A stretch of 64,000 bases of DNA from Scenedesmus sp. PABB004. Lineage: Eukaryota. Positions 1 to 63,838 of this stretch are shown here, one piece after another (position 1 is the stretch's first letter; every line of letters begins with the position of its first letter). Below the pieces are notes generated by a model. It made no database searches, had not been told where the DNA came from, and saw only the letters and a program-made list of their open reading frames with translations. The position numbers were made by a program, and so were the translations under genes. The stretch is taken from contig CM026548.1 of NCBI GenBank assembly GCA_014905635.1, positions 620,001 through 684,000 of the forward strand, read 5' to 3'.

Positions 1-135
1 GGCGCGGAGGCTCGGCGGCCGCCCCACGGCAGCCCCGCAGCAGCGCTGGGGGGGGTGGGGCTGAGCCTGCGCTGGGGGCTTGAGCCTGCGCTGGGGGCTG
101 AGCCCCTGGGGCTCTCTCTAAACCCTGCCGCGCGC

Positions 136-775
136 CTTGAGCATCTGTATGAAGGAGACTGAGAGGTGGACGTACGCGGCGTTGCCGAGCCACAGCACGC
201 ACGCAAAGAGCGCCCCGATCGGCACGACGCACCTGCGGCGGTGCCAGCGGCGGCGCCGGCGGCGGTGGGCCCGCGAACGCGCGGGCCCCCCGGCGCGGGC
301 CCCCGTGCTGCGTGCCCCCAGGTGGGCCGCACCGCAGGTAGGTCTCGCTGGGCATGTCCGGCGCGTCGACGACGCCGCCGCGCACGAGCGCCGCGCTCGC
401 CGCCCAGCAGAAGGCCATGTGCAGCCCCGTGAGCGTGAGCGGGAAGGGGAAGCCGCCGAGGCGGGGGTCCAGGATGTACTTGTTCAACCTGGGGGAGTGG
501 AGCCGCCCCGGGCGACGCGGGCAAAGGGCGCGCGTCGGTTGCGTGCGTGCGGGCGGCCGGCGCGGCGCGGCGACAGGGAGCCAGCGCGCGCGGCGCCCAC
601 ATGATCACGCCCGCGCTGAGCACGATCCAGAGCGCCATACAGCTGCGGCGGCGCGCGCGGCGCGCGGGTGGGCGGCGGCAGCGGCGAACAGCGGCGAGCG
701 CCGCGCGGCCCCGCGCGCCGCGCACCCGTAGGCGGCCCCCACCGCCCGCGGCGCGGCGCCGGGGTCGCCCGCCAT
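136..775 (-). CDS. Triose-phosphate/nucleotide-sugar transporter family protein (5' part; gene continues off the left edge)
   Basis: Spliced exons read [17 protein letters not shown] / [11 protein letters not shown] / [27 protein letters not shown] / [31 protein letters not shown]. These match TPT-family motifs NKY, FPFPxxLT and [12 protein letters not shown] at 775-773. Confidence 0.85.
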
Positions 776-994
776 CGCTGCCAGGCCTCAAGCAGCAGCA
801 GCGGCGCTCGGCGCTGGGCGTCAAGCAGCGGCGTCGCGCCGCCGCGGCAGCAGCACGGTGGCCGCCGCTGCTGCCCGGGTTGCCCCCGAGCTCTCTGGCT
901 AGTCTCTGCGGGCCCCTCGCGTTCGCGCACGCCTGCTTGGACCCCTGAACCGCGGCTCGAAGAAACTTTTGCTCGGCGCGCGATCGCGGCCCGC

Positions 995-9378: not shown

Positions 9379-12300
9379 GCGGGGCCTGACTTCGGCTGCC
9401 AGCTGCCGGCGCTGCACGCGCACCGCGCGCTGAGCGCCGGCAGCCCGCAGCCCGGGCAGCGCGCGCACGGCGCTGGCAGCCCGACCTCCGGCGGCGCGCG
9501 CGCGCGCAGCGCGGGCGCGGCGGCCGGGCTGACCGTCGCGCAGTTTGCGGGCGCGAGCGCCGAGGAGCTCCGCGCGCGCGTGCAGCTCACGGACGGCGCG
9601 GTGGGCGCGTGCCGGGCCGCGCACGCCGCCACGGCGCGCGACGCCGGGCGCTGCGCGGAGCGCATCGCGCAGCTGGGTGCGCACGTGCGGTCGCTGGAGG
9701 CGGAGGAGGCGGCGCTGGCGGCGCGCGTGCCGCTGCCGGTGAATCGCCTCGTGCGCGTGCGTGGCTGGCTCGATGAGCGCCGGCGCGAGCTGGCAGAGGA
9801 GGCGGCCGCGCTGGAGGGCCGCCAGGCGGTGCGTGCGCAGCGCGCTGCCAGGGCTGGCCCGCGGGCCAGCGCGTGCGGCGCGCACACCGCGTGCACAGCA
9901 TGCACAGCACGCACCGTTCGCCCGCAGGCGCTGCTCAAGGCCGAGTCGGCGCTGCGTGGGCGCGAGACCGAGGCCGAGCTGCTGGCTGAGGCGGCGGGCG
10001 GCCTCGACTCGGCTGCCGCGCGGGAGGCCGCGGCGGCGGTCAGGGCCGCGGCGGCCGCGCACGCGCGCGAGGAGGCGGCGGCGCGCGACCAGCTGCGCGC
10101 GCTGCGCGTGGAGGCGCGCCGCGGGCGCGCGCACGACGCGGCGCAGCAGGCGGCCGCGGCGGAGCGCGCCGCCGCCGCGGCGGCGGGCCAGGCGGGCGCG
10201 CGGGCGCGCCTCGCGGCCAGCCAGGCGGCCATCCGCGCGGCCGGCGCGGCGCTCGCCGAGGCGGCCGGCGAGGAGCAGGCGCGGCGGCGCGGCGCGGTGC
10301 TGGCGCTCAAGGGGCGCATCGACGAGGTGCGGGAGAGCATCGCCCAGCGCGCGCAGCGCGCCAGGTGAGCCGCGGCGCTCACGCAACCAGCTGGGGCAGA
10401 CGGCGCGGCGCGCCCCGCCCGGCAGCGCGCCCGAGCCGCGGCCGGCGGCCGGCCGGCGTGGCGCGCAGGGCGCTCGCGAAGCAGAAGCGCGAGGCCGAGG
10501 CGGCCGAGTTTGACGCGCTGCTTGAGGCGGGGCGCAACCCGTACGAGGTGTTTGCGGCGCGGGACGCGGCGGCGGCCGACGCGCGTGCTGCGGCGGCGCT
10601 CGCGGCGCAGCAGGCGCAGGTGCGGGGGCGCCGGGCGCGGCGCTGGGCGCCAGGCGGCGCTGCGCTGCTGCGGTCGCCTGGCCGCTCACGGCGGGGGCGC
10701 CGCCTCCGCTGGCAGCGCCTGGAGGCCATCGCGGCGCGGCTGGCGGACGAGGAGCGCGAGCGGCGGCGGCGCCTCGCGCGCGCCGAGTATGATCGCCAGG
10801 CGCGCACGCGCAGCGCGCGCGCGCGCGGCCGTTGCCGCCCTTACGGCCGGTCGCTGCAAGCCCGCCGTGTGACGGCGATGCGCGTGCGCAGGTGGAGGCT
10901 GAGTACCAGGCCAATATGGGCATCGCCGCGCAGCAGGCGCGCACCGACGCCTACATGCGCTCCCACACGCTGAGCGGCCAGGCGCTGCTGGACCCCACGC
11001 GCCGCGGCGCGCCGCACCCGAGCGAGGCGGTCGCGGTCAAGCCGGTGGGCTTTGGCCTCGGCCGCCCGAGCGCCGCGGAGGTCGCGTTCGTTGCCTCGCG
11101 GCAACAGGGCGGCCGCGACCTGGCGGGCGAGCTCGCGAGCAGCGCGCTGCTGCCGACCGCGCTGCGGTGCGCCAGCCGGGCCGGCGCGCGCACAACGACG
11201 TTGCACGGCCGCGTGCGCGCGCAGCGCGGTGGCGCTGACCTCGTCGCACCCCTGGCGCCCGCCGCAGGGAGGAGCTGGCTGCGCGGCAGCAGCAGCAGCC
11301 GTCCAAACTGCTGGCAGCGTGCGGCGGTGGTGACGCTGGCGGCAGCAGCCCGGGCAGCCCCGGCGGCGGTGGTGGCAGCTGCAGCGGCAGCGCCAACGAC
11401 GAGGCGGGTGGCAGCGGCGGCGGCGGCGGCGGCCGCAGTGACATGGCTGGGAGCCGGGGGCCGCTGCCGGTGGCCAAGCTCAGCAAGTTTGAGGCGGACC
11501 GGCTGGCAGCGGCCAAGCAGCGGCACAAGGAACGGCTCACGGCGCCCAAGGTTTGCCACAGACCTTGGCGGCCCAGATATTCGCGCCTGTGGCGCGCGGC
11601 CGCTGCCCGCTTACGGGCGCGCCGGCCGCCCACGCGCCGCGGCCGCCCACGCGCGCCGCCGCCGGCCGGCGCCTGCCTCTGCGCGCGCGCACAGGGCGCC
11701 CACGGGCGCACGCACTGTGGTGACGCCTTCATTGCGGCGCCGCGCGAGCTCCTGTTTCGTGACTTTTGCCCCGGCACGCGCTACACCGCGGCCGTGCAGC
11801 TCATCAACCGCTGGCCGACCAGGTCCGCGGTGCGCCTCGCCGAGCCGCCGCCCGAGGTGAGAGCCGCGCGCCGCCGGCGGCGCCTGCGCGACGCCGATGG
11901 CCGGGGAGGAGCTAGCTCCTCCCCGGCCCAACGCGCCGCAGCGCTGCGGCGCGTTGGGCGCGGCTGAGGCCTGCGCACGGCCGTGTGCTTGCGGGCCGTT
12001 GCGCGCACGGGTTACCTCGCAGATCGCTGACGTGCTGGAGCTGGACATGCCGCCGAGCGGTGCGCTCGCGCCGGGCGCGGCCGCCACGCTGCGCGTCACC
12101 TTCACGCCCAAGGTCTGCGCTCGGCTCGCGCCCGCGGCCGGGGCGGTGCTGCACGCCGCGCCGTGCAGCCGTGCCGCCCCGGCAGCGCGGGGCCGATCCC
12201 GCCCCGCGCCGCCCCCCGGCACAGGCGGAGGTCGACCTGGCCGCGTCCATCCCACTGCTCTCAGAGAGTGGCCCGCTCGCGCTGCCGGTTCGCTGCCTCG

Positions 12301-15300
12301 CGCGGCGCGCGGCACCCGTGGTCGACCCGTGCCCGCGCGTGTGCCTCGACGGCCGCGCCGGCGGCGTGATGCTCGCCGGCAGCGCGGCGCGGGCCGTGAC
12401 GGTCAGCAACGCCGGCGCGCTGGCGGTCGCGTACGACGTCCGGGTGGGTTGCGGCTGCGGGCGCCCCGCCTCGCCGCGCGCGCGGGCCGGCTGCCGGCTC
12501 TGCCCTCCGACGCCGGCCGCTCACCCATTGCAACCACCATCATCATCAGGTCACCGGCCCGCTCGCCGCCACGGCCGAGAGCGAGGAGCCCGACCCAGCG
12601 CGCCCGCTGCCCAACGCCACGCCCGAGGCGCTCGCCGCGCTCGCGGCCGGCGCCGCCGCGCGGAGCTCCCTCGCGGTGGCAGGGTTTCGCGTGACTGGCG
12701 TGCGCGGCGTCGTGCCCGGCTATGGCAGCCTGAGCTTCACCGTGGAGTTCTCGCCCCGCGTCGCAGGCGCGCGCGCGCAGCGCCGCGCCGCGCCGCGACG
12801 CCCCGCGCCGCGCCGCGCCGCCCGCGCGCCGGTCGAGCGCTGCGCGCTGCGCGCCGCCGCGCGGCGCAGGCGTGGTGGAGGTGCCGCTCGAGGTCAGGTT
12901 CACGGCGTCCGAGCGCCGCGGGCTGGTGCTGCCGCCGGTCGCCCTGACCCTCGCCGCGACCGGGCGCGAGCTGCCCGTGTCGGCGCTCACGCCGGTGGTC
13001 GACTTCAAGTGCGGCGCGACAGCCCTGCCGCCGCCTGCGTCCGCGCGGCGCGCGCCGCCGGCGCCGACCCCGGTCGCCGCCCCCGCGCGCGCCGCAGGGC
13101 GGTCGCCTTTGGTCGCACCTTTGCCGCGCCGCTGCTGCTCGCCAACGGGGGCAAGACCGTGATGAAGGCAGCCATTGCTGCGCCGCCGGAGCTGTGCGAG
13201 TGGGCCTCCTTCACGCCAGAGTTTGGGTTCATCCAGGCGCGCAGGCCGCGGCGCCACGGCGCCGCGTCGCTCTCTCGGCAGCACGCAGCCAGCCGCGCAG
13301 CCAGAGGCGCCGCGCCGCGACCCAGCGCCTCGGGCCGCGCCGTCCGCCGCCCGCCCGCCGCCCGCCCGCAGGCCGGCGACACGCTGGCCGTGAGCGTCAC
13401 GCTCAAGCCGGCGCCGGAGATGCTGGCGCGGCTCGCGCGGTTCCGCGTCGCGCCGGCCGGCGCCGACGCCCAGGTGGGCGCGCGGCGCGCGGCGCGCTGC
13501 GCGCGGCGCGGCCCGTGCCCGCCCGCCGCGCCGCCTGACCGCCCGACCGCGCTCCGCGCGCGCCGCGGCGGGCGCAGGACGTCTTTGAGGTCCCGCTGCA
13601 CGTGGGGGTGCCGGGGCAGACGCTGCCCGTGCCCGTCCGCCTGCGGTTCCAGCCCACCACGAGCGAGCTCGTCCTGGCGCCGGCGGTGCTCGAGTTTGGC
13701 CGCGTGCCGCTGTCTGAGGCCGCCGGCGCGGCGCTCACGCTGACCAACCCGGGCCTGCTGCCGCAGCGCTTCAGCTTCGGCGCGCGCCTGCCGCCGGGGC
13801 TGAGCCTGCTCCCGAGCGCGTGGGGCCGCGTGCTGCCGGGCGAGACGCTCACGCTCCTCGCGACCCTCCAGCCGCCCATCGCCGGGCCGCAGCGCTTCAC
13901 GCTGACCTGCCGCACCCTGGCGGGCCGCGCGGCCAGCATCGAGGCGCGCTGCGAGGGGCTGGCGCTGGACGTGGCACTGTCGCACAACACGATCGAGGTG
14001 CGCGGCGCGCGGCGCGCGCGCCGCGGGCGGGCGGCCGGCTGCCCCTGGCCGGCGGCCGGCCGCAGCCGACGCGCGCGCGCTCCTCGCGCCCACCGCGCGC
14101 AGTTCCCCGCGACCGCGGTGGGCGACGCCGCGAGCGCGTCGGTCGTGCTGAGCAATGCCAGCGCCGACACGGCCTACCTGTTTGAGCTGGGCGTGCCACC
14201 GGACAGCTGGCTGCAGGCACGGCACGCGCGCGGCGCGGACAAAGAGCACCGCAGCGCGCCGTGCGCGCTGCGCAGTGACCGACGGCGCGCCGCCCGCCGC
14301 CGCGCGCCGCGCAGCTCACGCCGCGCGTGGGCTGCCTCAAGCCCGGCGCCAGGCTGCGGCTGCAGGTCGATTTTGCGCCGCCGGCGTCGCTGATGGCAGC
14401 GGAGCAGGGCGCCGGCAGCAGCTGGCGCTGGTACCGCGAGTGGCTGCTGCCCTGCCACATTCGGGCCGCAGCGCGGGCCGAGGTGGACGGCCAGCAAGGC
14501 GACGGCGCCGCCGGCGCCTGCGGCAGCGCCGGCAGCGCGCAGGCCGAGGTCCTGCACCTTGCCTTGACGACGTGTGCAGTGGCGCCGCAGCTGGAGCTCG
14601 CGTCGCCCCAGCTGGCGCGGCCGGCGGGCAAGGGCTACGCCGTGCTGGACTGGGGCGCGCTCCCGGTCGGCGAGCGCGCGACGCGGCAGCTGGTCGTGAC
14701 CAACCACGGTGTGGCCTGTGGCGGCAGCGCGCGGGGCAGCGCCCAGCGGCGGCCACGCGACGCCCCTGCCCCGCCCGCCGCGCCGCGCGCAGGCCCTGAC
14801 GCCGCGGCGCTGCGCGCCGCGCCGCTCGACCCGGCGGGCCCCTTCTCGGTCGCCGCCGCGCTGCGCCCCGCGCCCGGCGGCGGCGGCACCGCCAGGGTGC
14901 TGCTCGCATTCGCGCCGGGCGCCTGCAGCGAGTTCCAAGAGATGCTCACGCTCCAGTGCGCCCCGCCTGCGCCCGCCGGCCAGCCAGGGGCCCGCGTCAG
15001 CCGCGCCCCGCCGCGCATCGCGCTGACCGCCCCGCTGGCCCGCAGGTCGGCGGCGGGCCGGCTCCGCGTCGCGCTGCGGGGGCGCGGCATCGCGCCCAGC
15101 GTCGCGGTCAGCCCGCCCGCCGCGGCGGCCGCGGGCGGCGGCCTCGCCTTTGGCGACGTGCTCGCGGGCGACCCGGCGCCGCGGGAGCTGCGATTCACGC
15201 TGACCAACACCTGTGCGCGTCGCGGCGGGGCCCGGCTGCTCGCGCCGCGCGCGGGGTTGCGCCCTCCTCTGCGCGGCGCGCGCGCGCGCCGCGCCGACGC

Positions 15301-19135: not shown

Positions 19136-20818
19136 TTAGTTGGCGGCCGCCTGGTCGGCGCGGAACGGCTGCGGCCCCGCGCCGCCGCCGCGGCGGCCGC
19201 CGGCGCTCGCGCCGCCGCCGCGGGGCTTGTAGAGCACCGTGGTGATGTACTTGCCACGGTAGCGGTGCGTCGCGCCCACGACCAGCGCGTTCATCGTCTG
19301 TGCGGCGCGGCGGCGCGCGGCGCGGCGGGCGCGGTCGCGTCGAGGGCGCGCGCGCGGCAGCAGCGGCGGCTGGCAGGAGCGGCGGCGGCAGCGGCGGGCA
19401 GCAGCGGCAGCGGCAGCAGCGGCGGCGGCGGCGGGCGGCGGCAGCGGCGCGCCTGGCCGCGCTGGATGTAGAGGTGGTTGAGAATGACGTGCTGCGGCCG
19501 CGGCAGGCTCGCCGCGCCCTCGGCGCTGCCGGGCACGTTGAGCAGCGTGAGCTGCAGGTGCGGCGGCATGACCGGCGGCTCCTTCGCGTAGTCCTCCGGC
19601 GTCGCGTGCGGGTTGGCGTAGCTGCGGGGTTTGGCGGCGCACGCGGCAGCGGCGGCGCCGCGCGGTCGGCAGGCGCGGCGGCGGCGGCGGGGGCCTGCCC
19701 GCCCGGCCGGGGCGCGCCCGGCGGCCCGGCGGCCCGCGCCGCGCGCCGCGCCGCGCCGCGCCGCACCTCGATGTCGGCGACGGCGGCGGGTCGAAGCCGC
19801 TCACGTTTTCGAGGTTTTCTGGCACGTACTCCTGGACCTCGATGACGTTGTTGATGTTGCCGATCTCGTCGTACATCGCCGCCTGGTTGGGGTCGTACCG
19901 CCAGTCGCCGTCGACGATGAACTTGTACTGCCGGGGGCAAGGAGGCGAGGCGAGGGAGGGGGGCGGCGGGGGCGTGCGGGGAGGGGTGGAGGGGTGAGGA
20001 CGAGGGCGCGGCGGGAGGTGGGAGGGGAGGCAAGCGCAGCGCGGGGCGCGGGGCGGGAGCGGCCGCGCGGCGGCGCGACGGCGCACGCCGCGCCCGGCGG
20101 GGCGCACGGCGCGCCCGGCGCCGCCGCGCCTGGTACACGCCCGGCGGCAGCAGCTTGATGACTGAAAAGTCGCGCCCCGTGCGCTGCAGCGGCTGCCGCG
20201 TCGTCCAGTTGTCAAACGAGCCCTCCACCTCGACGTGCTCGCCGCCGTGGCTCCCTGCGGCGCGGCGCGGCGCGGGGCGGCGCGGCAGGGCGTGGGGCGC
20301 CGCTGCCACGGTGCAAGTGCTGCTGTTGCCGCCGCTGCTGCGGCTCCTGCCGCCGCCGCTGCCGCGGCTGCTGCTGTCGCCGCCGCTGCCGCGGCTGCCG
20401 CCGCCGCCGCGGCGCACATGCGATGACGACGGGCACGAGCTTGGGCTGCGCGGGCCAGCCCGCGGCGCCGACAAACTCGGTCGCGGGGCGGCCCGGGCCG
20501 CCGTCGTCGGCCTTGGCGGCGATCGGCTCCATCGCGACCTGCGGGCTGTACGTCAGCGGCGACCCGGGGCTCATCGGGGGCGAGCCCACCACGAAGCCGT
20601 CGGCGTCGTCGCCGCCGACCGAGCGCTTGCCCTGCGCGTTGCCCTGTCGCGCGGCGGCAGCGCGCGGCGCGCGGCGGCAGCAGCAGCGTCAGCGGCAGCG
20701 TCAGCGGCGGCGCTCTCTGCGCTCGGCGCGGCGCGGCGGCGGGCGCGCGGGGGAGGGGCGGGGCGGGGAGGAGCGGGGAGGCGCGGGAGGGCGTCGCCGG
20801 CGGCGGCCCTCTCACCAT
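19136..20818 (-). CDS. KINB: SnRK1/AMPK regulatory beta subunit (CBM48 + ASC domain), 6 exons
   Basis: M|GNAQGK myristoylation start; [82 protein letters not shown]. Confidence 0.96.
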
Positions 20819-21257: not shown

Positions 21258-23130
21258 ATGGCGGACAAGCGGGAGGCGGTGATCTACACCAAGGGTGCGT
21301 CGGCGCCCGAACCGGCCGTCCATGGCGCGCCGTGCGGCCTGCGCGCGCGGCGGCCCGCCGTCGCCCACCCCGCGCCCCCGGCCCGCGCAGCGACCGTGCA
21401 AGACTTCCTGGAGCGCTACGAGGTCGGCGAGACCGTGGGCGTCGGCGGTGAGCCGGCGGGCGCGGCTGATCGGGCCCGCGCGCGCCGGGCGGGCGCCTGA
21501 TTGCCCGGCGCGCACGCCCACCGCCGCAGGCTTTGCCGTCGTCAAGCGCGGGCGCGACAAGGTCACCGGCGAGCCCGTGGCCATCAAGGTGGGGGCCCCC
21601 TCACCCCCGCCGGCGGCCCTCCCGGCCGCCGGCGACGCGGCGCTGCGGCAGCGCCCACGGCGGCGGCGGCGGCGGCGCGCCCGCCCGGCGACCGCGCGCG
21701 CGCGGCAAGCCACGTGGCTGCCGCCTGCAGCGCCCGGGGCAGGCGGGCGGGCGGGCCCGCGCGGCGCGGCGGCCGGCCGCCGCCGCCGCCGCTGCCGCCG
21801 CGCGCGCGCCGACCCCGCTCGCGGCCGCGTGCCGCCTTGCCGCGCGCAGGTGGTCGACAAGTCGCGCTACGCCGCGGGCGACAACAGCCTGGAGCGTGAG
21901 ATCCAGGTGCTGTGCAAGGTTGACCACCCCAACTGCATCAAGCTCTACGCCGTCTACATCACCGGCCGCAAGGTCTACATCGTGACAGAGCTCGTCACCG
22001 GCGGCGAGCTGCTCGACAGGCGCGGCGCGGCGGGCGGCGGGCGCTGCAGCGGCAGCAGGCGGCGGGTGCAGCGGCAGCGGGCGGCGCCAGCAGCGGCGGC
22101 GGCCGCATGAGCCAGGGCAGCAGTCGCAGCAGCGCCGGCCGCGCCGCCGCGCCCCGTGCCCGCGCCGCCGTGCTGTCCCTCCTCTCCCTCACCGCGCGCT
22201 CTGCCGCCGCCCCTAAACCCCGCCCCGCCCAGGGTGACGGAGAAGGGCAACTACACAGAGATGGACGCGGCGCACATCATCCGCCAGATCCTGCAGGGCG
22301 TGTCGTACCTGCACTCACACGGTGCGCCGCCGCCCCCGCGCGCCGCCGCCGTCGCCGCCCCGCGCGCGCCGCGCGCCCGCGCGCCCGCGCGCCCGCGCGC
22401 CCGCGCCCTGCCCTCGCCCACTCGCCTGCGCCCCGCCGCCCGCGCCCGCACCCCGCCGCCGCCCTCCCCGCCGCCCTCCCCGCCGCCGCCCGCTCCGCGG
22501 CGGTCAGGCATCGTGCACCGCGACCTGAAGCTGGAGAACATGGTCATGCTCAACCAGTGGGACGACTCGCCGGTCAAGATCGCCGACTTTGGGCTGAGCA
22601 AGTTCTTCAGCAACGACAACGTCCTCTCCACGATGTGCGGCTCGCCGCAGTACGTCGCGCCCGAGGTGCTCGGCGTCGGCGACGGGCTCAAGGAGTACTC
22701 GCCCGCAGTCGACATGTGGAGCGTCGGCGTCATCCTCTTCATCCTCCTCTCAGGCTACTCGCCGTTTGGTGCGGGGGACGACGACGCGGGGGACGGGGGC
22801 GCGGGGGACGACGACGCGGGGAGGGAGGGGGTGCGGGGAGGGAGGGGGCGGGGGGAGGGAGGGGGCGCGGGGAGGGGTGGCGGGCGGAGGGGCGGCGGGG
22901 CGCGGCGCAGCGGGGGCGCGGCGGCGGGCGCACGCGGCGGCGGCGCGGGCGGGGCGCGGAGGCCCACGGCGCGGCGCGCCGTGGCGCGCCGCGTCGCCGC
23001 GCAGACGACGACAACGACGCGGTGCTGTTTGAGAAGATCAAGTCGGGCAACTACGACGCCGACGACCCGATCTGGGAGAACATCTCGCCCGAGGCAAAGG
23101 ACGTCGTCGCAAAGCTGCTCACGGTGCGCG

Positions 23131-36764: not shown

Positions 36765-36830
<66 letters not shown>

Positions 36831-48023: not shown

Positions 48024-48313
48024 TCAGAAGTCGTCACTCCAGAGCTCGCTGTCGCCGCTCTCGCTCGGCTCCTCCAGCTCCGTGAGGTTGACCTGCGCGG
48101 CGGCGGCGGCCGGGCCGGGTGAGGCAGCGGCCCGGCCGCGCCGCGCCCGCACGGCGCCCCCGCCCCCGGCGAGACGAGCCCGGCGAGGCCGCCGCGCTCT
48201 CTCTGGCGGCGCGGCGCGGGCACCACCCCGCGCCGCACACCTGGTACCGCAGCACGCCGCCGATGCCGCCAAAGCCGCGGCAGAACTGGCTGCCCTCCTG
48301 GGACCTGCGCGCC

Positions 48314-48348
<35 letters not shown>

Positions 48349-51300
48349 ACGAGCAGCGCGCGCGTCGGCGCCTCCCCGCCGCCGCCGCCCGCCCGCGCTG
48401 CCGGGCCCCCGCGCACGCCGCCCCTGCCTGCCCCACGCTGCGCCTAAACCCTAAACCCGCGCACGGGCTCGCTCACTTGTTGGTCACAAACTCGAGCTGG
48501 CAGCCAAACTTCTTGTAGTTGTTTGCAAACCACTCGAGCAGCGGCTGCTTCTCCTGCACCTCGAGCTCGCCGCCCGACTCCTTGTCCTTGAAGTGGCTCG
48601 AGTTCTTGGCCTCCTCGCTCGAGAGGTGCTTCACCTCGGTCTTGCCCGTCGCGGTGTTCAGCAGCTCGTACCTGTGGCGCGGCGCGGCGGCGCGGCGCAG
48701 GGCGGTTGGGCGCGCGCGTACGCGAGCGCGGCGCGGCGTGCTGGGCGCGCGCGCCGCGCCGCCGGCCCGCCGCCGCCGCCGGCCCGCCGCCGGCGCGGGC
48801 GGCGCACCGGTCGCAGTCGAGCGCCTCCCACACGATGAGCACCTCGACCGCGCCCATCTCGAGGCAGGCGAGCGTGTCCTTCACGCTGAACACAAACTTG
48901 CCCGTGTCCTGCAAACGCGCGCGCACCCGGCGCCGGCGGCGGCGGCGACGCGGTGAGGCCGGCGCGCGCGGCAAGCCAGGGACGCCGCGCGCGCGCGCGC
49001 GCGCGCCGCCGCCGCCGCCACTGAAAACGCGGCAGCTGAGCAGCGGCAGAGCGGCGGCGGGTGCAGCGGCAGCGGGTGGTGCGGGTGGCGGCAGCGCGGG
49101 TGCGGCCTCGTGCGCGCCTGGCTGATTTCGTCGAAGAAGCGGGAGATGAGTCGCTTCTCCTGCACAAACTTGACGTTGCTCAGCATGTCGGCCGCGAGCT
49201 CGATGGCCTGGTTGAACCCGTTCTCGCCGCCTGGGTGGAGTGGAGGGAGGTGCGGTTTAGGGTTGAAGGGGAGGGGGGCAGGGCGCGGGGAGGGGTGCGG
49301 GAGCGGGCGGTTGTGGTGGCGGGGAGGGGGGCGGGGAGGGGCGCGGGGAGGGGCATAAGCGAGCAATGGTGGCGGGGGGAGTGGGAGGGGTGTGGGTGTG
49401 AGTGTGGGTGTGAGTGTGTGGCCGCCCTGTGAACCGTGGGCCAGCCCGGGGGCGCCCGGCGGCTGGCCCCGGTGCGAGGGCGGCGCGTCGCTGTGGGGCA
49501 GAGCCATTTCTTCAGCGTGCCATGGGCGGGGCAGCGGACTTGGTATTCTGCCCCGTGCCGCGCCGCGTGCGTGCGGCGCTGCGCGCTGCGGCACTGCGTG
49601 TGCATGCGTGCGCCTGCTGCCTGATCTCCCGCTGGCTGCTGCGCCGCCGGCCGGCCCGCCGCCGCCGCACAGGCGCCGCCGCCGCCGTGCTGCGGCGCGG
49701 CGCGGCGCACCGTAGCTGACGTCGACCACGCCCAGCACGACCGCCTGCAGGCGCGGGTCAAACATGTCTGACTGGCTCAGCTCGGTCTTGAAGTCGGCGC
49801 TGCCGCTGAGCACGAGGCCCGACACGTTGGGCCGGTCGGCCGTGATGTACATCTGCGTCGCCAGCTCGGCGACCTGCGGCGGCACCCGGCGCGACACGCG
49901 CGCGGAGGGTGCGCGCGGGCGGGCGGCGGCGCGTGGGCGCCGGCGAGTGCGCTGCCGGCGCGGCGCGCGCGGCGCGGGCCCCGCGGCGGCACCGCCCCCG
50001 CTGCCGCTCCCGCTCCTGCACACGCCATGCCGCTCCCGGCTGGCGCAGCAGCGGCGGCACCACCCCGGCTCCCCGCTCCCGCGTGCTGCCACGTGCCGGC
50101 CTGGCAGCCCGCGCCCGCTCCCCGCTCGTGCATGCACCTTGCGCACGTAGTTGTGCCGCTTCTCCATGCGCAGGCGCGCGAAGCGCAGCGCCGACTGCCC
50201 GCCGCGGCCGTGCTTCTTGGGCAGGTCGACGGTGAACTTGTGCAGGATCTCGCGCGTGTTGCCGGAGAGCGTGCCGAAGAGCGTGCCGTTGCCGTCCATG
50301 ACGATGAAGCCGTACCTGGGCGGTTCAGGGGTTAGGGGTGCAGGGCAGGGCAGGCGGGCGGGCAGGGTCTAAGGGTTTAGGGGTTAAGGGCTCGCCGGGC
50401 TCGCCTTGCGGCGGGGCGCGGCGGGATCGCCGGCGGCGGCGCGCGCGTGGAGCGGGCGGCCGCAGCGGCGCGCGTGCAAGCGGCAGCGCGTGCCGGCACG
50501 GCGCGGCGCGGCCGTGGCGCGGCGCGGCCGCAGCGGCGCACTTGTTGTCGCTCTCGAGCAGCTCGCTGAGCGCGGCGGTGTGGAACTTGTTGTCGCACAT
50601 GTAGAGGCTCGTGTTGATCGGCTTGAACGGCTCAAAGTCGATGTTGACCTTCTTCTCCTTGCCCTCCTCAGTCATGATCATGCCCGTGTACACGACCAGC
50701 CCGTTGGGCGGCAGCTGGCGCGGGCGGGCGGCGGGCGGCGGGGCAGGGTGTGGCGGGCGGGGCGGGGCGGCGGGAGGGGTGGGTGGCGCGCGGGCGCGGG
50801 GCCGCGCTGTGCGCCCGACCCGCGGCGCCGCCGCCGCGCGCCCAGCCCGCAGCGCGCCGCGCTGCGCGCCCAGCCCGCCCAGCCCGCAGCGCCGCGCCCG
50901 CGCCGCCGCTGCTGCTGCCGCGCCGGCGCCGGCGCGGGCACCTTGTTGTAGAGCTTGAGGCGCTGCTGCGCCGACGTGATGGCGCCGAGCACCGAGAGCC
51001 GGTTCACGCGGCTCTTGATGTTGGACGCGGTGCCGTACTCGTCGCCGAGCATCTTCTGCACGCGGCTGATCTGCGCGCGCGGACAGCGCGCGCGCGCCGG
51101 AGCGGCGGGCGCGCGGGTGGGCGAGCGCGCCGCGCCCGCGCCGTGCCACGCCCGCCGCCGCCCTGAGGAGCCGGCCGGCGGCTGCCGGCTGCGCCGCCGC
51201 CCGCGCGGGGGCAGCACGCGCCTGGTCCTTGGGCGGGAGGATGAGGGAGATCATGCTCGTGCCGTTGCCGCGCGCCGCCTCGAGCGCCTTGATGAGGCGC

Positions 51301-52252: not shown

Positions 52253-55200
52253 TCAGTCGTCCTCCACGCTGCTCGTCGCGCCCATGTGCTTGTCCTCCAC
52301 GCGCCGCACCTGCGGCGGCGGGCGGCGCGGCGCGGCGCGCTCGGCCAGCCTGCCGCCAGGCGGCGGGCTGGCAGGCTCGCGCTCGCCGCCGGCGCCGGAG
52401 CCCACGGCGGCCAGCGAGTCAGCTGGCTGGACCGGCCACCGACCAGCCGCGCGCAGCGCACCTGGATGGTGTGCGTCGACGCGGAGCGCCAGATGGGCCG
52501 CTTGCCGCTCTGCACCAGCGCCACGACCTGCCCGCGGTCCAGGTAGCGCCGCGCCACGAGCTCCCCGAGCGCCGCGTCAAACGTCGCCTCTGGAAAACGG
52601 CGGGCGGCGGCGCCGCGCGGCGGGCGCGGCGGTCGAGCCGAGCGCGCGGCGAACGCGCCCGCAGCCGAGCGCGCGGCGGCCGCGCCCGCAGCCGGGCAGC
52701 CACCGCGCGCCGCACCCGCGTCGTCGCTGAACTCCAGCAGCAGCGGCACGACGCCGTGGTAGAGCGTGAGGTGGCGCTGCACCTGCGGGTTGTCTGCAGG
52801 CCGCCCGCGGCGGCGGCGCGGCGGTCGGCGCGCGGGCGGCCGGGGGCTGCGGCGCGGCGCCTCAACCCCGAGGGTCGGGGTCCCAGACGCCAGCAGGCCC
52901 AGAGCCTCCTGTCTAAACCCTGAACAAAGCCCTGAACCGCGCCCACCCGTGAAGGCAAAGATGGTGTGGTCGGGGCGGTAGTGGCTGAGGAGCGCGGGCA
53001 TGCCGCCCTGGCGGCTGAACACGAGCAGCGGCGCGCGCACGGTGTTGGCCACTGCGGCCGAGGCGGCGGGCGCGCGGGCGGCGCGGCGCGTGGGCGGCGC
53101 GCGGGCGACGCGCGGCCCCCGTCCCCGGCCGCGCTGCAGCCGCGGCAGGCCGACCGCCTGCCTCGCTCACTCGTGGTGCTGTGGAATGCAAACATCTCGC
53201 TCAGCCACGCGTCGCTCGGCCCGCCGCCGCCGCCGGCGCCCGCCGCCGCGCCGCGCTTGCCGGGCGGCATGACCCAGTCGATCGGCGGCGCCTCGTCGGT
53301 GCCAAAGCGCCGCGCGCCCTGCGGGGCGCGTGTCGTGCGGCGGCGCGGGCGTCGTCGCGCGGCGGCGGGCCGGGGCCGGGGCCGGGCGCGCCGCGGCCCC
53401 GCGCGGCCTCCCTCCCCGCGCGCCGGCGGACCGCGTATCGCTGCATGGCGATCTCGGTGCGCAGCGCGACGGTGCTCTGCGTCGCCACGGCCTTGAGCGG
53501 AAACTTGCCTGCGAGCGCGGCGCGGGGCGGGTGGGCAGTGGCGGCGCGGGGCCGTGCGCGAGCACCGCAGCCGGCGCCGAGCGCAGCTGGGGCGGCGGGG
53601 CGGCGGGGCGGCGGGGCGCGCCGCCGGCGCACCGTACGCGGTCTCGCCGCTGAGCATCACCGCGTCGGCGCCCTCGCGCACCGCGATCGCGATGTCGCTG
53701 ACCTGGGGGCAGGGAGCGGCGGCGCCACGGTCGCGCGCGGCGCAAGCGGCCGGGGCTCGCGCGCGCCGGGCGGCCGCGGGGCGGCGCGCACCTCTGCGCG
53801 CGTGGGCGCGGGGTTGCTGATCATTGACTCCAGCATGTTGGTCGCGACGACCACGGGCTTGCCGCGCCGGCGGCAGCCCTGCACGATCTGGGCCTGCCAG
53901 AACGGGACCTCGGCGAGCGGGAGCTCAGCGCCGAGGTCGCCGCGCGCGACCATCGCGCCGTCGACGGCGTCAAGGATGCTGTCGAGCGCCTTGACCGAGT
54001 CGGCGCTCTCAATCTTGGCCAGGACCTGCAGGGCAGCGGGCGGGGCGGCAGGGCGGGGCGCCGGCGTGCTGTGACTGTGCCGTGTGGGCTGCTGGCGCGG
54101 CGCATGCGCCAGAGAGGAAGAGGGAGAGAGCCAGAGAGTGTGCGGGCGCGGCGCGGCGGCGCGCCTTGATCTTGCTGCCCTGCGCCGCGAGCCACTTCTT
54201 GACGTCCAGGATGACCTGGGCGTCCTGCGCGGCGGCGGCGGCGCCAGCGCCAGCGGCGGTGCCGGCGGCGTGAGCCTCGGCGCGCCCGCGAGCGGCGCGC
54301 ACTCAGCCTGGCCCGCCCCCTGGCGGCGCGGCGCGGTGTCCGGCGGTGCGGTGTCTGGCGCGGCGCAGCGCGGTGCGGTGCGGTGTGGCGCGGCGCGGCG
54401 CGGGCGCCCGCGGTGGTCGTGCCTTGACGAAGCTGAGCGCGTAGTAGTCGACGCCCGCCTCGACGCCAAACTTCAGGTCCAGCCAGTCCTGCGCGCGCGT
54501 GAGTGTGTGCAGGGCGCGCGCGTGTGCTTGGTGTGTGTGCTGGGCCGGGCCGGTGGGGCGGCCGCGCGCCGGGCGGCGCGTGTCGCCGCGCGGACCTTGT
54601 CGGTGATCGCCGGCAGCGTCGCGCTCTTGCCGCGCACGTTGAGGTGCCGCCGGCTCTCCAGCACGCCGCCGTCGACGCACTCGACCTGCGCCGGCGCACG
54701 GCGGCCGTGCGGCCGCGTCGGCCCGGTGCCCGCCCCGCCCCCCGCTAGCCCTGCCCTGCCCTCCCTCCCTCCCGGCTCCCCGCGCACGCCTCCCTCTATT
54801 TCAACAGCCGCGCCTGCACGTTGGGGCCGTCCTTGCCGACCACTTTGAAGCTCATGATGCCGCCGTCGACCAGCAGCTCGTCGCCGACGCTCACGTCATC
54901 GATGAAGCCGTCGTAGTTCACGCTCACACGCCCGCCCTTGCCGTTGGCGCCTGCACGGCGCGGCACGGCACGCGGGGGCATGGAGGTGAGGCGAGGCGCG
55001 GGAGCCAGGTGCGGAGGCGAGGCGGCGCGGCGGCGCGGCCGGCGGTGGCGCAGGGCGGTGCGGCGCGGCGCGCACCCTCGCGTATGGTGAACGTCACGCG
55101 GCCGCCCGCCTCGAGCAGCATCGGCTCCGCGAGGTCGCCGCTGCGCACCTCGGGGCCCTGCGGCCGGCGGCGGCGGCGCGGCGGGGGTCGCCCCGGCGCC

Positions 55201-55795
55201 CACCCTTGCGCTCACGGCTTCCGCGCGCGCGCCGGCCGGCGCGCCCCGTGCACACAGCCCCGCACGCCGCGCCGCCGCCGCGCCTTGGTGTCGAGCATCG
55301 TCGCGACGCAGCCGCGCCCGGTCGCGTTGTACTCGCGGACGAGGTCCACGACCGCCTGGTGGCTCTCGTGGCTGCCGTGGCTCATGTTGAGCCGCGCGAC
55401 CGCCATGCCCGCGTCGGCGAGGCGGAAGAGGTCGTCCCGGCTGGCAGTGGCGGGGCCGATCGTGCACACGAGCTTGGTCTTGCGCGTCCACGGCGCGGCG
55501 GCGCCGCCGCGGAAGCCGCTCGGCGCGACGTCGCCCGGGTAGCCCCCGAGCTCGGACCGCTCGCGCGGGCGGTCCCAGGCCTCGCGGTCGCGGAAGACGT
55601 CGCGCTCGGCGAGCAGGCCGCCGCCGCCGTCGGGGGCGCGGCGCCGCACGGGCGCGAGCGCCGCGCAGCAGCGCCGCCGCCGGCGGCGAGGCTCGCGCTT
55701 CCGGGCCGCCTGACGAGGGTCGCAACAGCCGTCCGGCGCGGCCCTGGAGCCGTCCCGGGCGCGCCGGCGGCGGCGCCGCGCCGCAGGGAGCGCAT
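52253..55795 (-). CDS. PYK: Plastid pyruvate kinase, ~14 exons; apparent 1-nt frameshift in transit-peptide region near 55634
   Basis: [117 protein letters not shown]. Confidence 0.97.
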
Positions 55796-56113: not shown

Positions 56114-57680
56114 ATGTTGCTGGCCGCGCGCTGCCGCCAGGCTGCCGCCCCACTGCGCCAGCGCCTGACCCCGGCCGCGCTGCGCCTGCTCTGCCGCCCG
56201 GCGGGCGAGCGCGGCATGGCGGCGGCGGTCGACGGCTCGGGCGGCTGCGGCGACAGCGCCGGCGGTGCCCAGCTGCTCGCGGCCGCTGAGGACCGCTACG
56301 ACGGCGTCATCATCGACGAGTCCCGCCTGCCCGCCGACCCGGCGGCCTTCGGCGCGGCGCTCGCGGCGTCGCTGTCAGCCTGGGCGGCGGCGGGCAAGCG
56401 CGGCGTGTGGCTGAAGCTGCCGCGGCGCAGCCACGCGGCGCTCGTGCCCTTCGCGGTCGACGGGGGCTTTGAGTTTCACCACGCGGAGGCGGATTACGTG
56501 ATGATGACCAAGTGGCTGCCCCCAGACTCGCCAAACACGCTGCCGCCCAACGCGTCGCACCAGGCACGGCGGCGGCGCGGGGGCGGCGCGGCGCCGGCGC
56601 GGCGCGCGGCGTGGCGGCGCGGCGGCGCGGCGGGCCAGCGCGGCGGCGCAGGCGTGCGCGCGAGCGCGCGCGCCCCTGCGCCGCAGGTCGGGGTGGGCGC
56701 GTTTGTGGTGAACGCGCGGCGCGAGGTGCTCGTGGTGCAGGAGGCCAACGGCCCGCTGCGCGGCGAGGGCTTCTGGAAGATGCCGACCGGCCTCGTGCAC
56801 GCGGGTGCGCGCTCGCGCGGGGCGCGGGCGCCCGGTGCTCGCTCGCCGCCGCCGCCGCCGCTGCGGCCGCGGCCGCCAGACAATGCGCGCGTGCCGCACG
56901 GCGTGACGCGCGCGCGCTCGCTGCGCCTGCTGCCGCCGCCGCGCCGGCAGGCGAGGACCTGATCGACGCGGTCGAGCGCGAGGTGGCGGAGGAGACGGGC
57001 GTGGCCGCAGACTTTGCCGCGCTCATCGCCGTGCGCCAGGCGCGCCGCCGCGCCGCGCCGCGCACGCCGCGCCGCGCCGCCGGCCGCTGCGCCGGCCACG
57101 CGCCGCGCGCCTCGGCCGCGCCGCGCGACCCGCGCCGGCGCCCACACGCTGCTTTGTGCCCGCACGCACCGCGCCGCGCGTGGGCGGCCATGCCCGGCCG
57201 CGCACTCCACAACGCGCAGGCGCACGGCTTCCTGCATGGAAAGAGCGACCTCTTCTTCTGCTGCGGCCTCACGCTGCGCGACGGCGGCGGCGCCGGCGAG
57301 CCGCCGTCGGCGCTCAAGCCCTGCGTGAGCCGCGCGCGCGGCGCGCGGGCGGCAGGCCGGCGGCCGGCAACCGCACCGCGCACGAGCGCCCCCATCGCCA
57401 CCGCCGCCGCCGCCGCGCGCAGGAGCGGGAGATTGCGGCGGTGCGGTGGATGCCGCTGGAGGAGTACGCCCAGCAGCCGTACTTTTCCAAGCTGCCGGAG
57501 GCGTACCACACGCTGCTGGCGCGCTGCGTGGCGTGGGCCGACGGACGGTACCGCGGGCTGCGCGGCCGCGTGTTTGACGGCAGCCCGGGGCGCCCGCGCC
57601 GCGACCTGCTGATGTGGGGCGACGTCGACGACGCGGCGGTCGGCGGCGGCGAAAGCGGTGCGCCGGGGCTCAAAAGCTGA
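56114..57680 (+). CDS. Nudix hydrolase (plant NUDT2/NUDT8-like, ADP-ribose/NADH type), 5 exons
   Basis: DRYDGVII, GKRGVWLKLP, FEFHHAE, LPPNASHQVGVGAFVVN, WKMPTGLVHAGEDLIDAVEREVAEETGV (Nudix box), GKSDLFF, EIAAVRWMPLEEY. Confidence 0.93.
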
Positions 57681-59597: not shown

Positions 59598-62500
59598 TCA
59601 CCTCGGCGCCGGCTGCGCGCCATTCGGCGCCGCGCCGGCGCCGGCCCTGCCCCCGAACGGGCAGCGCGGCGCCGCCGCCGCGGGCGGCGCCGCGCCGCGC
59701 GCGCCGGCGACGCCGTGCGGGCCAAACGCGCCGCCGGCCGCGGCGGTGCTGTCGCCCCACGCCGCCGAGCCGTCCTCGTCGCCGTCCTCCTCCTCGCCGA
59801 CCGCGCCGAGGCGCAGCGCGCCGCGCCAGTCGCCGCCCGTCGACTCGCTGTGCTCCAGGTAGATGCTCTTCTCCGTCGCATAGAGCGCGTCCCCGCTGCC
59901 CGCGCCGTCGGCGGCGGTGTAGCCCTCCGCGGCGAGCTCCTCCTCCCAGCTGCAGCTCACGGTGCCGGGCCGGCCGCTGGGCGCGGCGCTGCCGCTGCCG
60001 GCCGACCGCGCGCCGGGCGCCGCGAGCCCGCCCGGCGTGAGCGGGCCGCCGGTGCGGCTGCCGGTCGCGCCGCCGCCGCCGCCGCCGCGCAGCGCGCCGG
60101 CGCCGCCCGCCGCCGCGAGGCGCGCCTGCTGCTGTGCGGCGAGCGCGGCCTGCTGCTTCACGCTCATGCTGTGCTTGCGCGTGAGGTGGGACTCTATGTC
60201 ATAGTAGGCCAGCGGCGCCGTCGAGCAGCGCAGCGCCGCGCGCATCGCCTGCAGGCGCGTGAGTATGACGTCCAGCGTCGGCCTGGGGCAGACGGCGGGC
60301 GGGTTGGTTGGCGGGCGGGGAGGGCGGGCGGGCGGGAAGGAAAGAGGGGAGGGCGGGCGAGTCGGGGCGGAGCGGCGCGCGGCCGGGGCAGGGGCAGGGG
60401 GGCGAAGGAGCGGCAAAGGGGCTCGGCGGCGGCGGCGCGGCGCGCGCACCGGTTGGCGGGGTTGGGGTCCCAGCACTCGGCGGTCAGCGCGGCGTAGTCC
60501 TCCGGCGCGTCCGCCGGCCACTCGGGGCGGCGGTGCAGCAGCGTGATCTGGTGCCCCAGCAGCGCGCGCGGGATGCCGCGGAATACGTGCTTCGCCGTGT
60601 ACAGCTCCCACAGCACCTGCCGCACGTGCGGCGGCGGAGGCGCGGCGCGGCGGCGGCGCAGCTCGTCGGCACGTGTCGGCGCGCGCGGCTCCGGCCGGCC
60701 GGGCGTGCTGCGGGTCGGCGCGAGACCGCGGCGCGCGGCGCGACGCGGCGCGGCGGCGCGGGCGCACCATGCCGAGCGCGTAGACGTCGGCGGCCTTGCT
60801 GATGTGGCCCTTGATCATGATCTCGGGCGCCATGTGCGTCATCGTGCCCTGCGCGACGCGCACCGCGGGCGCTCGGCGGCGCGCGCGGCCGCGCGGGCCC
60901 GCCGCCGCCGCCGGCGCCGCCGCGCGGGCGCGCATCACACGCCCCCGCACGCGCCGGCCCTGCCCGCCCCGCCGCCGCTGCGCGCCTGGAAGGCGTTTGA
61001 GAGGTGGGTCTCCATGTGGTCCATCTTCACCGCCAGCCCAAAGTCGGCGACCTTGCTCGTCGCGCCGCGGCCCTCGCTGCCGCTCGACTTGAGCATGATG
61101 TTGCGCGCCTGGCGTCGGCGGCGGTTTGGTGCGACACGGCACAGCGCGGTTTAGGTTGAGGTGAGTGGGAATGAGCAGTGAGCGACAGTGGCGCGGCGCG
61201 CGGCGGGGGCGGGCGCGGGGAGCGCGGCGGCGGGCCCGAAGCGTCGGGGCCCGCGCAGCGGAGAGCGCGGCTGCCAGACCCGCCCCCGCGCCGCGCGCCG
61301 CCGCGCCGCCGCGCCGCGCCGCGCCGCCGCGCGCGCCTTGAGGTCGCTGTGCAGCACGTTGCACGTGTGCAGGTGCGCGACGGCGGTCGCGATCTCGACC
61401 GCCGTGTCGAGCACCGCCGGGTAGTTGAGCCCCCCGTCGGGGAGGTTGAACGCGCCCAGGTCGAGCGCCTCGCGCAGCGACCCGCGGTCGCAGTACTCGC
61501 ACAGCAGCCGCACCTGCGCGCGCGGGCGGGCGGGCGTGGCCGCGCGAGCGCGTGAGTGTGCGAGCGTGTGTGTTGTGTGTTTGGGGCGGGAGGAGGGAGG
61601 GAGGGAGGAGCGAGGGAGGGAGGAGGCGGCGCGGGGCGCCGCGCGGGCAGGCGGCGCACCTCGTACGAGTGCACGCCCGCGTTCTCGCCCGCCGTCATGC
61701 CACCCGCGCCCGCGGCGGCGGCGCCGCCCGACGACACGCCGCCGGTGCTGTCGGCGGTGCTGCCCATGAGCAGGAGCTGCTTCTCACTCGGTCCCCCGCG
61801 GCTGCTGTTGTCCTTGAGGGGCTTGATGTCGTACGTGTAGGTCTGCGGCGGGGACGCGCGGCGAAGGGCGGGCGGCGCAGGGTTGAGAGTTGAGGTCAGC
61901 CGGGCAGCCGCGTGGGCGCGTGGGCGTGTGGGCGCGCTGACAGAGACTTGCGAGCGCCTGCCCGCAGCCCCGTGCGCGCGCCGGCCGCCGCGGCGTCACG
62001 GGCCGCGGCGGCAGGCGGCGGCGGCGGCGCGCCTGCATGATGTTGGGGTGACTCAGCGCCGACGAGATGGCCGCCTCCATGATCGCCCTGCGGCGCGGCG
62101 CGGCGCGGCGCGTTGGGCGAGGCGGTGGGGCGCGCGGTGCTGCAGTCGCCCGCGCAAGTCTGCCCCTGAGCGCGGAGGGGGGGGGGCAATGCAACGCCTC
62201 GCTCACATCTTCTCGCGCTTCTCCTGCCCGCTCATGGCCTCCGGCAGCACGATCGTCTTGATCGCGACCACGCTGCCCTTCCACAGGCCCTTGTAGACCT
62301 GCAGAGGGGACGGACACATCGCGGCGGCGGCGGGCGGGGTCGGCGCGCGCGCCGCGGCCGCGGCGGCGGGCGCGCGCCGCGGCGCGAAGGCCGCGGCGCC
62401 GGCGGCGCGCGGGCGCACGGCCTGCGTGTGACCGCCCGCGCGGCGCACCTTGCCGTACGTGCCCTCGCCGAGCAGCTCGAGGCACTGGATGTGGTTCTCC

Positions 62501-63838
62501 TCCGCGGTGGAGATGTTGGCGCGCGCGAGCTCGCGCCGCACCGCCTCGATGCGGTCTGCGCGCGGCGGTTAGGGGGCGCGCGGGTCAGCCGGCCGGCCCG
62601 CCACGCAGGCGGCGGCGGCTGCGGTGCAGCGCGCGGCGCGCGGCGGCGCGGCGCGGCGCGCACCCAGCGCCATGCTGTGCCGGTTGCCCATGCCGCTGCT
62701 GCCGCTGTTGGTCGCGGTGCCGCCGCTCGCCGCGGGCTGCGTGCCGACGAGCGCGGCGGCCTGGCTCTGGCAGTCGGCGATCGCCGCGAGCGCCTGGGGG
62801 CTGTTCTCGCCGGGGCCGCAGGGGAAGCAGGCGATGAGGCCCGACATGCGGTAGAGCAGCGCCTCGGCGCGCGCCTTCTCCTCCTCCAGCCACGCCGTCG
62901 TGCTGGCGAGCTTGTCGTTCGCCGCCTGCGCACGCAATCGCGGGGCGGGGCGGCGCGGGGCGCCGCGTGGGCCGCCGCCGCCGCACACACGCGGGCTCGC
63001 GCGCCGTGCGCCGCGCCAGCCCCCGGGTGGCCTGACGAGCCGGGCCAGCTTCTCTCAACGCACGGGCACTCCCTCGCACGCGAGCGCTCCCGTCCGAAGG
63101 TTGCTCCCCCATATATACAAACCACTACACCGCGCCGCGCACCTGCAGCTCGAGCGTGAGGCGCTCGTACTTGTCCTTGAGGTCGGCCTCCGCGGCGCGC
63201 TGCTCCGCGAGCAGGATGTAGTCGGCGCTGATGTCGTGCAGCGGGATGTCGCTCAGGAACACGCCGCTCGCCTGCGCGGGCGGGCGGCGGGCGGCGGGGC
63301 GTGTTAGTTGTTAGTTTTCGCGTTGTGTTGCGTCACGGCGACTGATGCCACGTCTGTGTGGTATTGAGGCGGGCGGCAAAGGCAGCGCGGCGGCGCCGGG
63401 GCCCTCTGCTGCCCCCTGCCCCTCCCTGCAGCGCCCCGCCGTGCCCCGTGTGCTCGCCTGCATCTCGCCGAGCCCGCGCACGCGCGGGGAGCCGAGGAAG
63501 ACGAGCACGCGGCACGGCGACGACGCGCCTGCCGGGCGGGCGGGTGGGGGGCGGGCGCGCGGGCGGCGGCACGCGCGGCGGGCGTGAGCGGCGGAGGAGC
63601 GAGGGGCCGCAACGCACGCCCCCGCGCGCGCGCGCGCGCGCGCGGGACAGAGAGGCGAGACAGGCGGCCGCGAGCGCGGAGCGGGCCCGCCGCGCGCCGC
63701 ACCCGGCAGCGTGACCTCTGTCGGCAGCATCTGTCCCTTGAGCGTGACGAGGCTCGCGCGCGCCTGCAGCACAAAGTGGTTGTTCGTGTGCAGCGCGATC
63801 GCGGCAAAGTCGAGCTGCACGTGCGCGGGGTGCTTGAA
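59598..63838 (-). CDS. HNOBA (sGC-type PAS + signalling helix) fused to TKL/Raf-like Ser/Thr kinase; 5' end lies beyond the window
   Basis: In-frame spliced exons: LKGQM...VLVFLGSPRVRGLGEMQASGVFLSDIPLHDISADYILLAEQ...LEEEKARAEALLYRM, then LGEGTYGKVYKG, VAIK, HPNIMQ, EYCDRGSL, HSDLKARNIML, DFGL, GTMTHMAPE, DVYALG, CWDPNPANRP. Confidence 0.9.

Follow-up and report, generated by a model that had tools for sequence, protein, structure and literature searches.

A 64-kb stretch of nuclear DNA from the green alga Scenedesmus sp. PABB004 (contig CM026548.1, positions 620,001 to 684,000 of the forward strand; this whole stretch is hereafter called the window, and coordinates refer to it) contains many introns that begin with GC rather than GT and end with AG. 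Such GC-AG introns account for 16-29% of the introns, depending on the set counted, and their donors obey a strict context rule, MAG|GC[GA]CG (M = A or C; the bar marks the exon-intron boundary). An initial annotation had proposed that conserved proteins splice in frame at 23 GC donors in this DNA, and the GC-AG observation is confirmed here by spliced alignment, domain continuity and gene parsing of the genomic sequence; we establish the positions of the GC donors, their frequency and the rule in their context. Most likely these are ordinary U2-type introns in which a C at the second intron position (+2) is tolerated through compensation by the flanking bases, and which GC pressure has made frequent.

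Junction placement by tblastn with pairwise refinement was adequate for eRF1, and in pyruvate kinase the matches ran through introns. Because the DNA is nearly free of stop codons, tblastn matches cross introns, and a dynamic-programming spliced protein-to-DNA aligner was therefore written, which handles intron phases and split codons, sets the donor penalty at 20 for GT and at 25 for GC, and applies no further context. The aligner was run with full-length homologues of eRF1, pyruvate kinase, CFAP74 and a Nudix hydrolase. For sites in genes without a fetched homologue, Pfam continuity was used: the exon translations flanking each predicted junction were submitted as separate contiguous references. 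A Viterbi gene parser, trained on the verified exons and introns and covering both strands, scored codon usage against intron trinucleotides, with separate matrices for GT and GC donors and an acceptor matrix. The parser recovered 40 of the 41 verified introns exactly, as well as all 11 testable claimed sites outside its training set. It overcalls: its intron calls numbered 193 and 180 on the two strands until strand territories were imposed, which left 122 GT and 49 GC introns. About half of the latter (25/49) had poor donor scores, approximately at the level of decoys, and were counted as noise; decoy dinucleotides given the same matrix and prior yielded 12 (GG), 15 (GA), 16 (CC) and 34 (CG) calls.

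Homology verified 41 introns in four genes, 29 GT-AG and 12 GC-AG. The eRF1 gene, on the reverse strand, was aligned with four homologues and has 10 introns, eight GT-AG and two GC-AG; the latter are 51071..51221 (cag|GCGCGT) and 48909..49117 (cag|GCGCGC). For neither donor (51221, 49117) did an exhaustive local search turn up a GT-AG solution within 25 score units, and against homologue P0005 no G[TC]-AG alternative to the 49117 intron was found within 25 units. A metagenome scan with a relative's eRF1, which kept 80 intron-less loci of 58-80% identity, was not used. The plastid-type pyruvate kinase gene, also on the reverse strand, has 13 introns in its conserved part, with spliced alignment placing GC donors at 55283 (intron 55158..55283, aag|GCGCGG), 54422 (54225..54422, aag|GCACGA) and 54164 (54026..54164, aag|GCGCGC). 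The GT alternative to 54422, at 54428, would remove two residues present in the aligned homologues. A further pyruvate kinase intron (54686..54813) is called ambiguous because the six homologues split between donors: two choose the GC at 54813, three the GT at 54819, six nucleotides (nt) upstream, and one (P0131) the GT at 54840. The tandem donors 54813-54819 on the reverse strand (aac|GTGCAG|GCGCGG) both keep the frame, with a difference of two residues, and may represent an alternative 5′ splice site.

CFAP74, on the forward strand, was aligned with one Tetradesmus homologue (P0241), which gave 16 introns. Two of these were dropped: a 50-nt GC-donor call at 13528 that lies in an unaligned stretch, and a 605-nt call at 11090 judged unreliable for its poor donor (GTTGCC). 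GC donors occur at 10800 (intron 10800..10891, cag|GCGCGC), 12767 (12767..12869, cag|GCGCGC), 13237 (13237..13371, cag|GCGCGC) and 14217 (14217..14632, cag|GCACGG), all by spliced alignment; the phase 1 intron at 12767, which the initial annotation had not listed, is found by the ab initio parse as well. The 14217 intron has two candidate acceptors, 14632 by Tetradesmus homology and 14314 by the parse; the second would add coding-like sequence that the Tetradesmus homologue lacks. In the Nudix hydrolase gene, on the forward strand, seven homologues give four well-supported introns, two of them with GC donors: 56564..56686 (cag|GCACGG) and 57040..57219 (cag|GCGCGC), the latter in seven of seven alignments. 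Among the 150 Nudix matches listed, most have their best-matched stretch ending at residue 252-253 of the open reading frame (ORF), which is the claimed exon end.

Five additional GC donors were placed by Pfam continuity. In the gene for the AMPK/SnRK1 beta subunit (reverse strand), the AMPK1_CBM match on either side of intron 19928..20129 (cag|GCGCGG) ends (9-48) and resumes (49-81) exactly at the exon ends, and AMPKBI covers positions 2-46 upstream and 49-71 downstream of intron 19298..19452 (cag|GCGCGC), which the parse also predicts. A protein kinase gene on the forward strand is interrupted by a phase 2 intron, 22020..22232 (cag|GCGCGG), across which the Pkinase match runs from 36-86 through one split codon to 90-117. 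In a second kinase gene, on the reverse strand, the match reaches the last upstream residue at intron 61109..61336 (aag|GCGCGC; Pkinase 75-125) and continues from the second downstream residue (127-152); at intron 60849..60985 (cag|GCGCGC) it covers 127-152 upstream and 159-185 from the first downstream residue. Domain positions thus continue exactly at the exon ends at 20129 (48 to 49), 61336 (125 to 127) and 22020 (86, split codon, 90), and within one or two positions at 19452 (46 to 49) and 60985 (152 to 159, in the variable activation loop).

All 23 GC donors proposed initially lie in AG|GC context on the strand assigned to them (18 CAG|GC, 5 AAG|GC), and each has one upstream frame that looks coding, with high third-position and low second-position guanine-plus-cytosine content (G+C). 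Their in-frame splicing holds at 15 sites by homology, where an intron that starts with GC and ends with AG, as expected of the U2-type GC-AG class, restores a conserved frame on removal (10 sites by spliced alignment, five by Pfam continuity). Donor 54813 is ambiguous, and 27986, 32861, 39736, 41686, 62032 and 63457 are predictions of the ab initio parse, some with one-sided Pfam matches. Two donors are new with respect to the initial list, 12767 on the forward strand, which is verified, and 36976 on the reverse strand, a predicted candidate.

The GC-AG share is 29% among the homology-verified introns of the four genes (12/41; confidence interval 18-44%), which had been picked for holding claimed sites. 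In the window-wide parse it lies, according to the filter, between 24/146 (16%, counting only GC calls with the full motif) and 21/93 (23%), a range into which the initial rough count of 23 in 120-130 introns falls. The estimates of 16-29% bear out the claim that GC-AG introns are far above their normal level of about 1%, the published values being 0.4-1.3% in the accessible text of three surveys (PMC1557818, PMC6310983, PMC3033335).

The donor context separates the two classes sharply. The verified GC donors read MAG|GC[GA]CG in 12 of 12 cases; AG occupies positions -2/-1 in all 12, as had been proposed, versus 12 of 29 GT donors (Fisher p=0.0004), C occupies +4 in 12/12 versus 18/29, and G occupies +5 in 12/12 versus 27/29. 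The proposal that the exon side compensates for the C at +2 fits this combination of AG, C and G. The rule does not stem from an ascertainment bias in the initial annotation, because the aligner applies no context. Across the window-wide parse, donors of the form MAG|GYRCG are GC in 24 cases and GT in 13, a C share of 65%; outside this context, GC calls are no commoner than decoy dinucleotides. The GT donors were described initially as mostly GTGCGC or GTGCGG rather than GTRAG, and this holds roughly: GTGCG[CG] accounts for 13/29 verified and 65/122 predicted GT donors, and GTRAG for 5/29 and 14/122. Away from predicted donors, the sense strand carries 20 copies of the motif MAG|GCRCG, and the antisense strand carries 21. 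A depletion test was thus negative, and the motif alone is therefore insufficient for splicing. Among verified donors, 11 of 12 GC and 15 of 29 GT introns are in phase 0. A phase 0 bias is seen window-wide too, after CAG (Gln) or AAG (Lys) codons and never after GAG (GC 20/24 versus GT 55/122). GC-donor and GT introns do not differ in median length (137 versus 124 nt) or in G+C (86% in both).

As the initial annotation had held, extreme GC pressure acts on the DNA in which the GC donors sit. Each 4-kb bin of the window has a G+C of 78-82%, and the overall value is about 80%, with zero N; verified coding sequence has a G+C of 73/51/95% at the first, second and third codon positions, and verified introns are 86% G+C, with T contributing only 7% of their bases. 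We infer that the GC donors originated through this pressure and are used by unmodified U1/U6 machinery. GC pressure would steadily supply T-to-C changes at donor position +2, as the scarcity of T in introns and the 95% G+C of third positions suggest. A C at +2 would be a mismatch in the helix with the U1 5′ end, and selection would remove it except where the strongest remaining contacts are present, namely exonic A at -2 and G at -1, followed by a purine at +3, C at +4 and G at +5. Within this strongest context C outnumbers T at +2, and elsewhere the donor remains GT, which leaves a strict MAG|GC(G/A)CG class of roughly a sixth to a quarter of introns.

Several observations weigh against this explanation. 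Base pairing with U1 accounts only in part for donor recognition in this lineage, since the C that is common at +4 is unpaired against the canonical U1 5′ end. Within the MAG|GYRCG context the C share of 65% falls below the 86% that C makes up of C plus T in introns and that a free site would be expected to show, and +2 is therefore not fully neutral. The 29% share is biased upward, because the genes were picked for holding claimed sites, and six of the claimed sites come from an ab initio parse whose GC-donor model was trained on 12 sites of the same window and overcalls. Splicing at the GC sites is, moreover, deduced from protein conservation, and there is a small chance that U1 or U6 is altered in this organism.

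That deduction would also leave room for an artefact: true GT donors could lie close to wrongly placed junctions, or a systematic assembly error could have turned T into C at +2. GC makes up about 21% of dinucleotides and is nearly always found near any junction, and at one site, 54813, a GT is indeed present at a distance of six bases. When GC donors were forbidden in the aligner, however, 55-138 score units were lost per gene, and the GT-only replacement sites delete conserved residues, cause insertions or deletions, or read into intron sequence. When any of the 16 dinucleotides could serve as donor, each at the GC penalty, the aligner took nothing but GT and GC in well-aligned parts; CG, CC and GG, each at 10-20% of dinucleotides and so comparably frequent (GT is at 3%), were never chosen there, and the two CC sites selected both lie in poorly aligned stretches. 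Random T-to-C errors would be blind to context, yet AG precedes every verified GC donor and fewer than half of the GT donors. An artefact is accordingly very unlikely. Even less credible is the reading that the GC-donor introns are a separate kind, either U12-type or a mobile introner-like family with a GC donor. Introner elements are known from Micromonas pusilla, one of the species with a GC-AG excess. The 12 verified donors all read GC[GA]CG, though, and none is the U12-type GCATCC (motif as given in the text of PMC1557818) or ATATCC, and the U12-type candidate was rejected. An all-against-all BLAST of 133 predicted introns returned only out-of-register low-complexity matches, at equal rates among GC-GC (100 hits per 325 pairs), GC-GT and GT-GT pairs, and the introner-like candidate was rejected for the want of any in-register shared sequence; the similarity of GC-donor and GT introns in length and composition likewise speaks against a separate kind.

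A change in the splicing machinery is improbable as well, less so than the two foregoing readings. Here a variant U1 or U6 small nuclear RNA (snRNA), a base modification or an altered U1 small nuclear ribonucleoprotein (snRNP) protein would accept C at +2, and the excess would follow. Such a change could produce the predominance of C over T at +2 among the strongest donors (24 GC versus 13 GT), and GTGCG, the consensus of the GT donors, itself fits the canonical U1 5′ end poorly. Modifications or snRNP proteins are suggested as a possible cause for Aureococcus and Micromonas pusilla in the relevant passages of Iwata & Gotoh (PMC3033335). Within the window nothing supports this reading: no snRNA gene is found there, an Rfam scan giving 0 matches at gathering thresholds and three weak matches (isrG, mir-6132) at E<=1. 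The strict AG at -2/-1 (12/12) is itself a prediction of an unchanged U1 with a mismatch at +2. In both published species with a high GC-AG share, furthermore, the U1 5′ 11-mer is reported as the unchanged consensus, AUACUUACCUG in Aureococcus and both Micromonas species (relevant passages of PMC3033335). By analogy, a rewired U1/U6 would be unnecessary, because Aureococcus and Micromonas pusilla show the excess with that unchanged U1. It is doubtful that the spliceosome has by and large ceased to distinguish U from C at +2 through altered U1/U6, base modification or an snRNP protein; if it had, the organism would offer a natural system for the study of how +2 is read.

The remaining GC donors are predictions of the ab initio parse. 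The kinase gene that holds donors 60985 and 61336 has a further predicted GC-AG intron at 61843..62032 (reverse strand). On the forward strand, introns are predicted in a ribosomal protein L35-like gene (27986..28124; the upstream exon is short, and the downstream exon, starting with its first residue, corresponds to L35p 26-60), in a WD40/DUF3337 (WDR48-like) gene (32861..32954, phase 1), in a rhodanese-domain gene (39736..39873; PDB and Pfam match the downstream exon only) and in a START/polyketide-cyclase-like gene (41686..41805, phase 2), for which a PDB search gave no useful match. On the reverse strand, a predicted intron (63272..63457, cag|GCGAGC) lies upstream of an HNOBA-like exon that matches HNOBA 146-187 from the second downstream residue, and the newly listed candidate in a RING-finger gene (36822..36976, aag|GCGCGC) is flanked by exons scoring 69 and 51 bits in the parse. 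Claimed donor 135 (1..135, reverse strand, aag|GCGCGC) has a coding-like upstream frame, and its putative intron extends past the window edge, with the acceptor outside.

A comparison of six-frame ORFs with Pfam shows that the window is densely filled with nuclear eukaryotic genes on both strands. The set comprises ribosomal protein S10, an ammonium transporter, CFAP74, the AMPK/SnRK1 beta subunit, protein kinases and L35; WD40/DUF3337, RING proteins, rhodanese, a START-like protein, a FAST-kinase-like ORF and eRF1; and pyruvate kinase, Nudix hydrolase, an LYR protein and the HNOBA-like exon. The closest full-length protein matches are from the sphaeroplealean green algae Monoraphidium minutum, Raphidocelis subcapitata and Tetradesmus obliquus. 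The G+C of the window, and of its verified coding and intron sequence, is well above the values given for sequenced Sphaeropleales in the accessible text of PMC12571836, where about 56% is typical and the maximum exceeds 70%. The RING-finger gene contains a run of about 18 glutamine codons (a CAG repeat; 36486-36821 on the reverse and 36733-36823 on the forward strand), and this stretch underlies two of the three weak Rfam matches, which are surely spurious. Positions 42820-46689 on the reverse strand form a single unbroken ORF of 1290 codons that matches FAST_1 and shows strong coding periodicity. Unlike the intron-rich genes around it, this one apparently has no introns, and the two weak GC introns that the parser places inside it (45882 and 46568) are probably false.

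The initial annotation had also warned that automated gene models in this DNA would often be wrong, a claim for which we found only hints. The eRF1 model of a close relative (P0007, 408 amino acids), compared with 48030-51811 on the reverse strand, lacks the residues after the exon that ends at GC donor 51221, together with a second block. From the Raphidocelis pyruvate kinase model P0142, compared with 54164-54225 on the reverse strand, an exon of 20 residues is missing, the one with GC donor 54164 at its end. Both gaps look like errors of GT-only gene prediction in the relatives. According to a supplement table of PMC6310983, the annotation of Monoraphidium neglectum has 67,727 splice-site pairs of the canonical and only 19 of the major non-canonical kind, so that GC-AG introns are nearly absent from it; together with the two gapped models this suggests that GC donors are under-annotated in the sphaeroplealean group. 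Gene prediction limited to GT donors will place exons wrongly or leave them out at about one intron in five, in this genome and probably in GC-rich relatives too; in the MAG|GC[GA]CG rule, annotators have a model that is both simple and specific.

GC-AG introns at a high frequency have precedents. The description of their frequency as exceptional in the initial annotation does not stand among very GC-rich algae, given the cases of Aureococcus, Micromonas pusilla, Emiliania and Chlorella in the accessible sections of the published surveys. With its 78-82% G+C and 16-29% GC-AG introns, the window belongs with the genomes in which a G+C of about 65% or more accompanies a GC-AG share far above 1-2%. 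It extends the link between G+C and GC-AG frequency to a green-algal lineage at about 80% G+C, and it shows that a C at +2 is accepted only in donors that also have exonic AG, C at +4 and G at +5. In a literature search made partly by title, with subscription journals and preprint supplements outside its scope, we found no published report of sphaeroplealean GC-AG donors; the window is thus a further case of the GC-AG excess described in the accessible literature, in a lineage for which no such report was found. It opens no new question, and its interest is moderate, because both the excess and its probable cause were published as early as 2011, in passages of PMC3033335.

The nearest known systems are those of Iwata & Gotoh 2011 (PMC3033335), whose sections on these species give GC-AG shares of 39.6% in Aureococcus anophagefferens, 22.2% in Micromonas pusilla and 7.7% in Chlorella sp., against 1.3% overall. 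Aureococcus and Micromonas pusilla share with the window a very high-G+C nuclear genome, GC-AG introns at tens of percent, AG acceptors and the explanation by GC content. They differ in lineage and in a G+C of 66-70%, versus about 80% locally in the window, and the strict MAG|GC[GA]CG rule is not met with in the passages of that paper on the two species. In the haptophyte Emiliania huxleyi, GC donors make up about 56-60% of curated junctions and are confirmed by reverse-transcription PCR (RT-PCR), and ab initio models were wrong owing to the expectation of GT, according to the sections available from Feldmesser et al. 2014 (PMC4028052); in pelagophytes, which are stramenopiles, GC donors reach 14-17% (accessible text of bioRxiv 10.1101/2024.10.30.620910). 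Both resemble the window in combining GC donors with normal AG acceptors and in an excess ascribed to GC content, as far as these texts describe them. They differ in being documented by RNA or RT-PCR, whereas the donors of the window are predicted from DNA, and the GC-donor share of the window is lower than that of E. huxleyi. Classical U2-type GC-AG introns, in turn, constitute 0.4-0.9% of introns in animals and plants (Sheth et al. 2006, PMC1557818) and 1.2% on average in plants (PMC6310983), and their donors are nearer the consensus at other positions than GT donors are, offsetting the U1 mismatch at +2 (PMC1557818; each as stated in the accessible text). The window shares this compensation, visible as AG at -2/-1 in each of its 12 verified GC donors. 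Judged against the same texts, its GC-AG frequency is some 15-30 times higher, and its intronic consensus is GC[GA]CG, after the GTGCG donor type of the lineage, in place of the classical GCAAGT.

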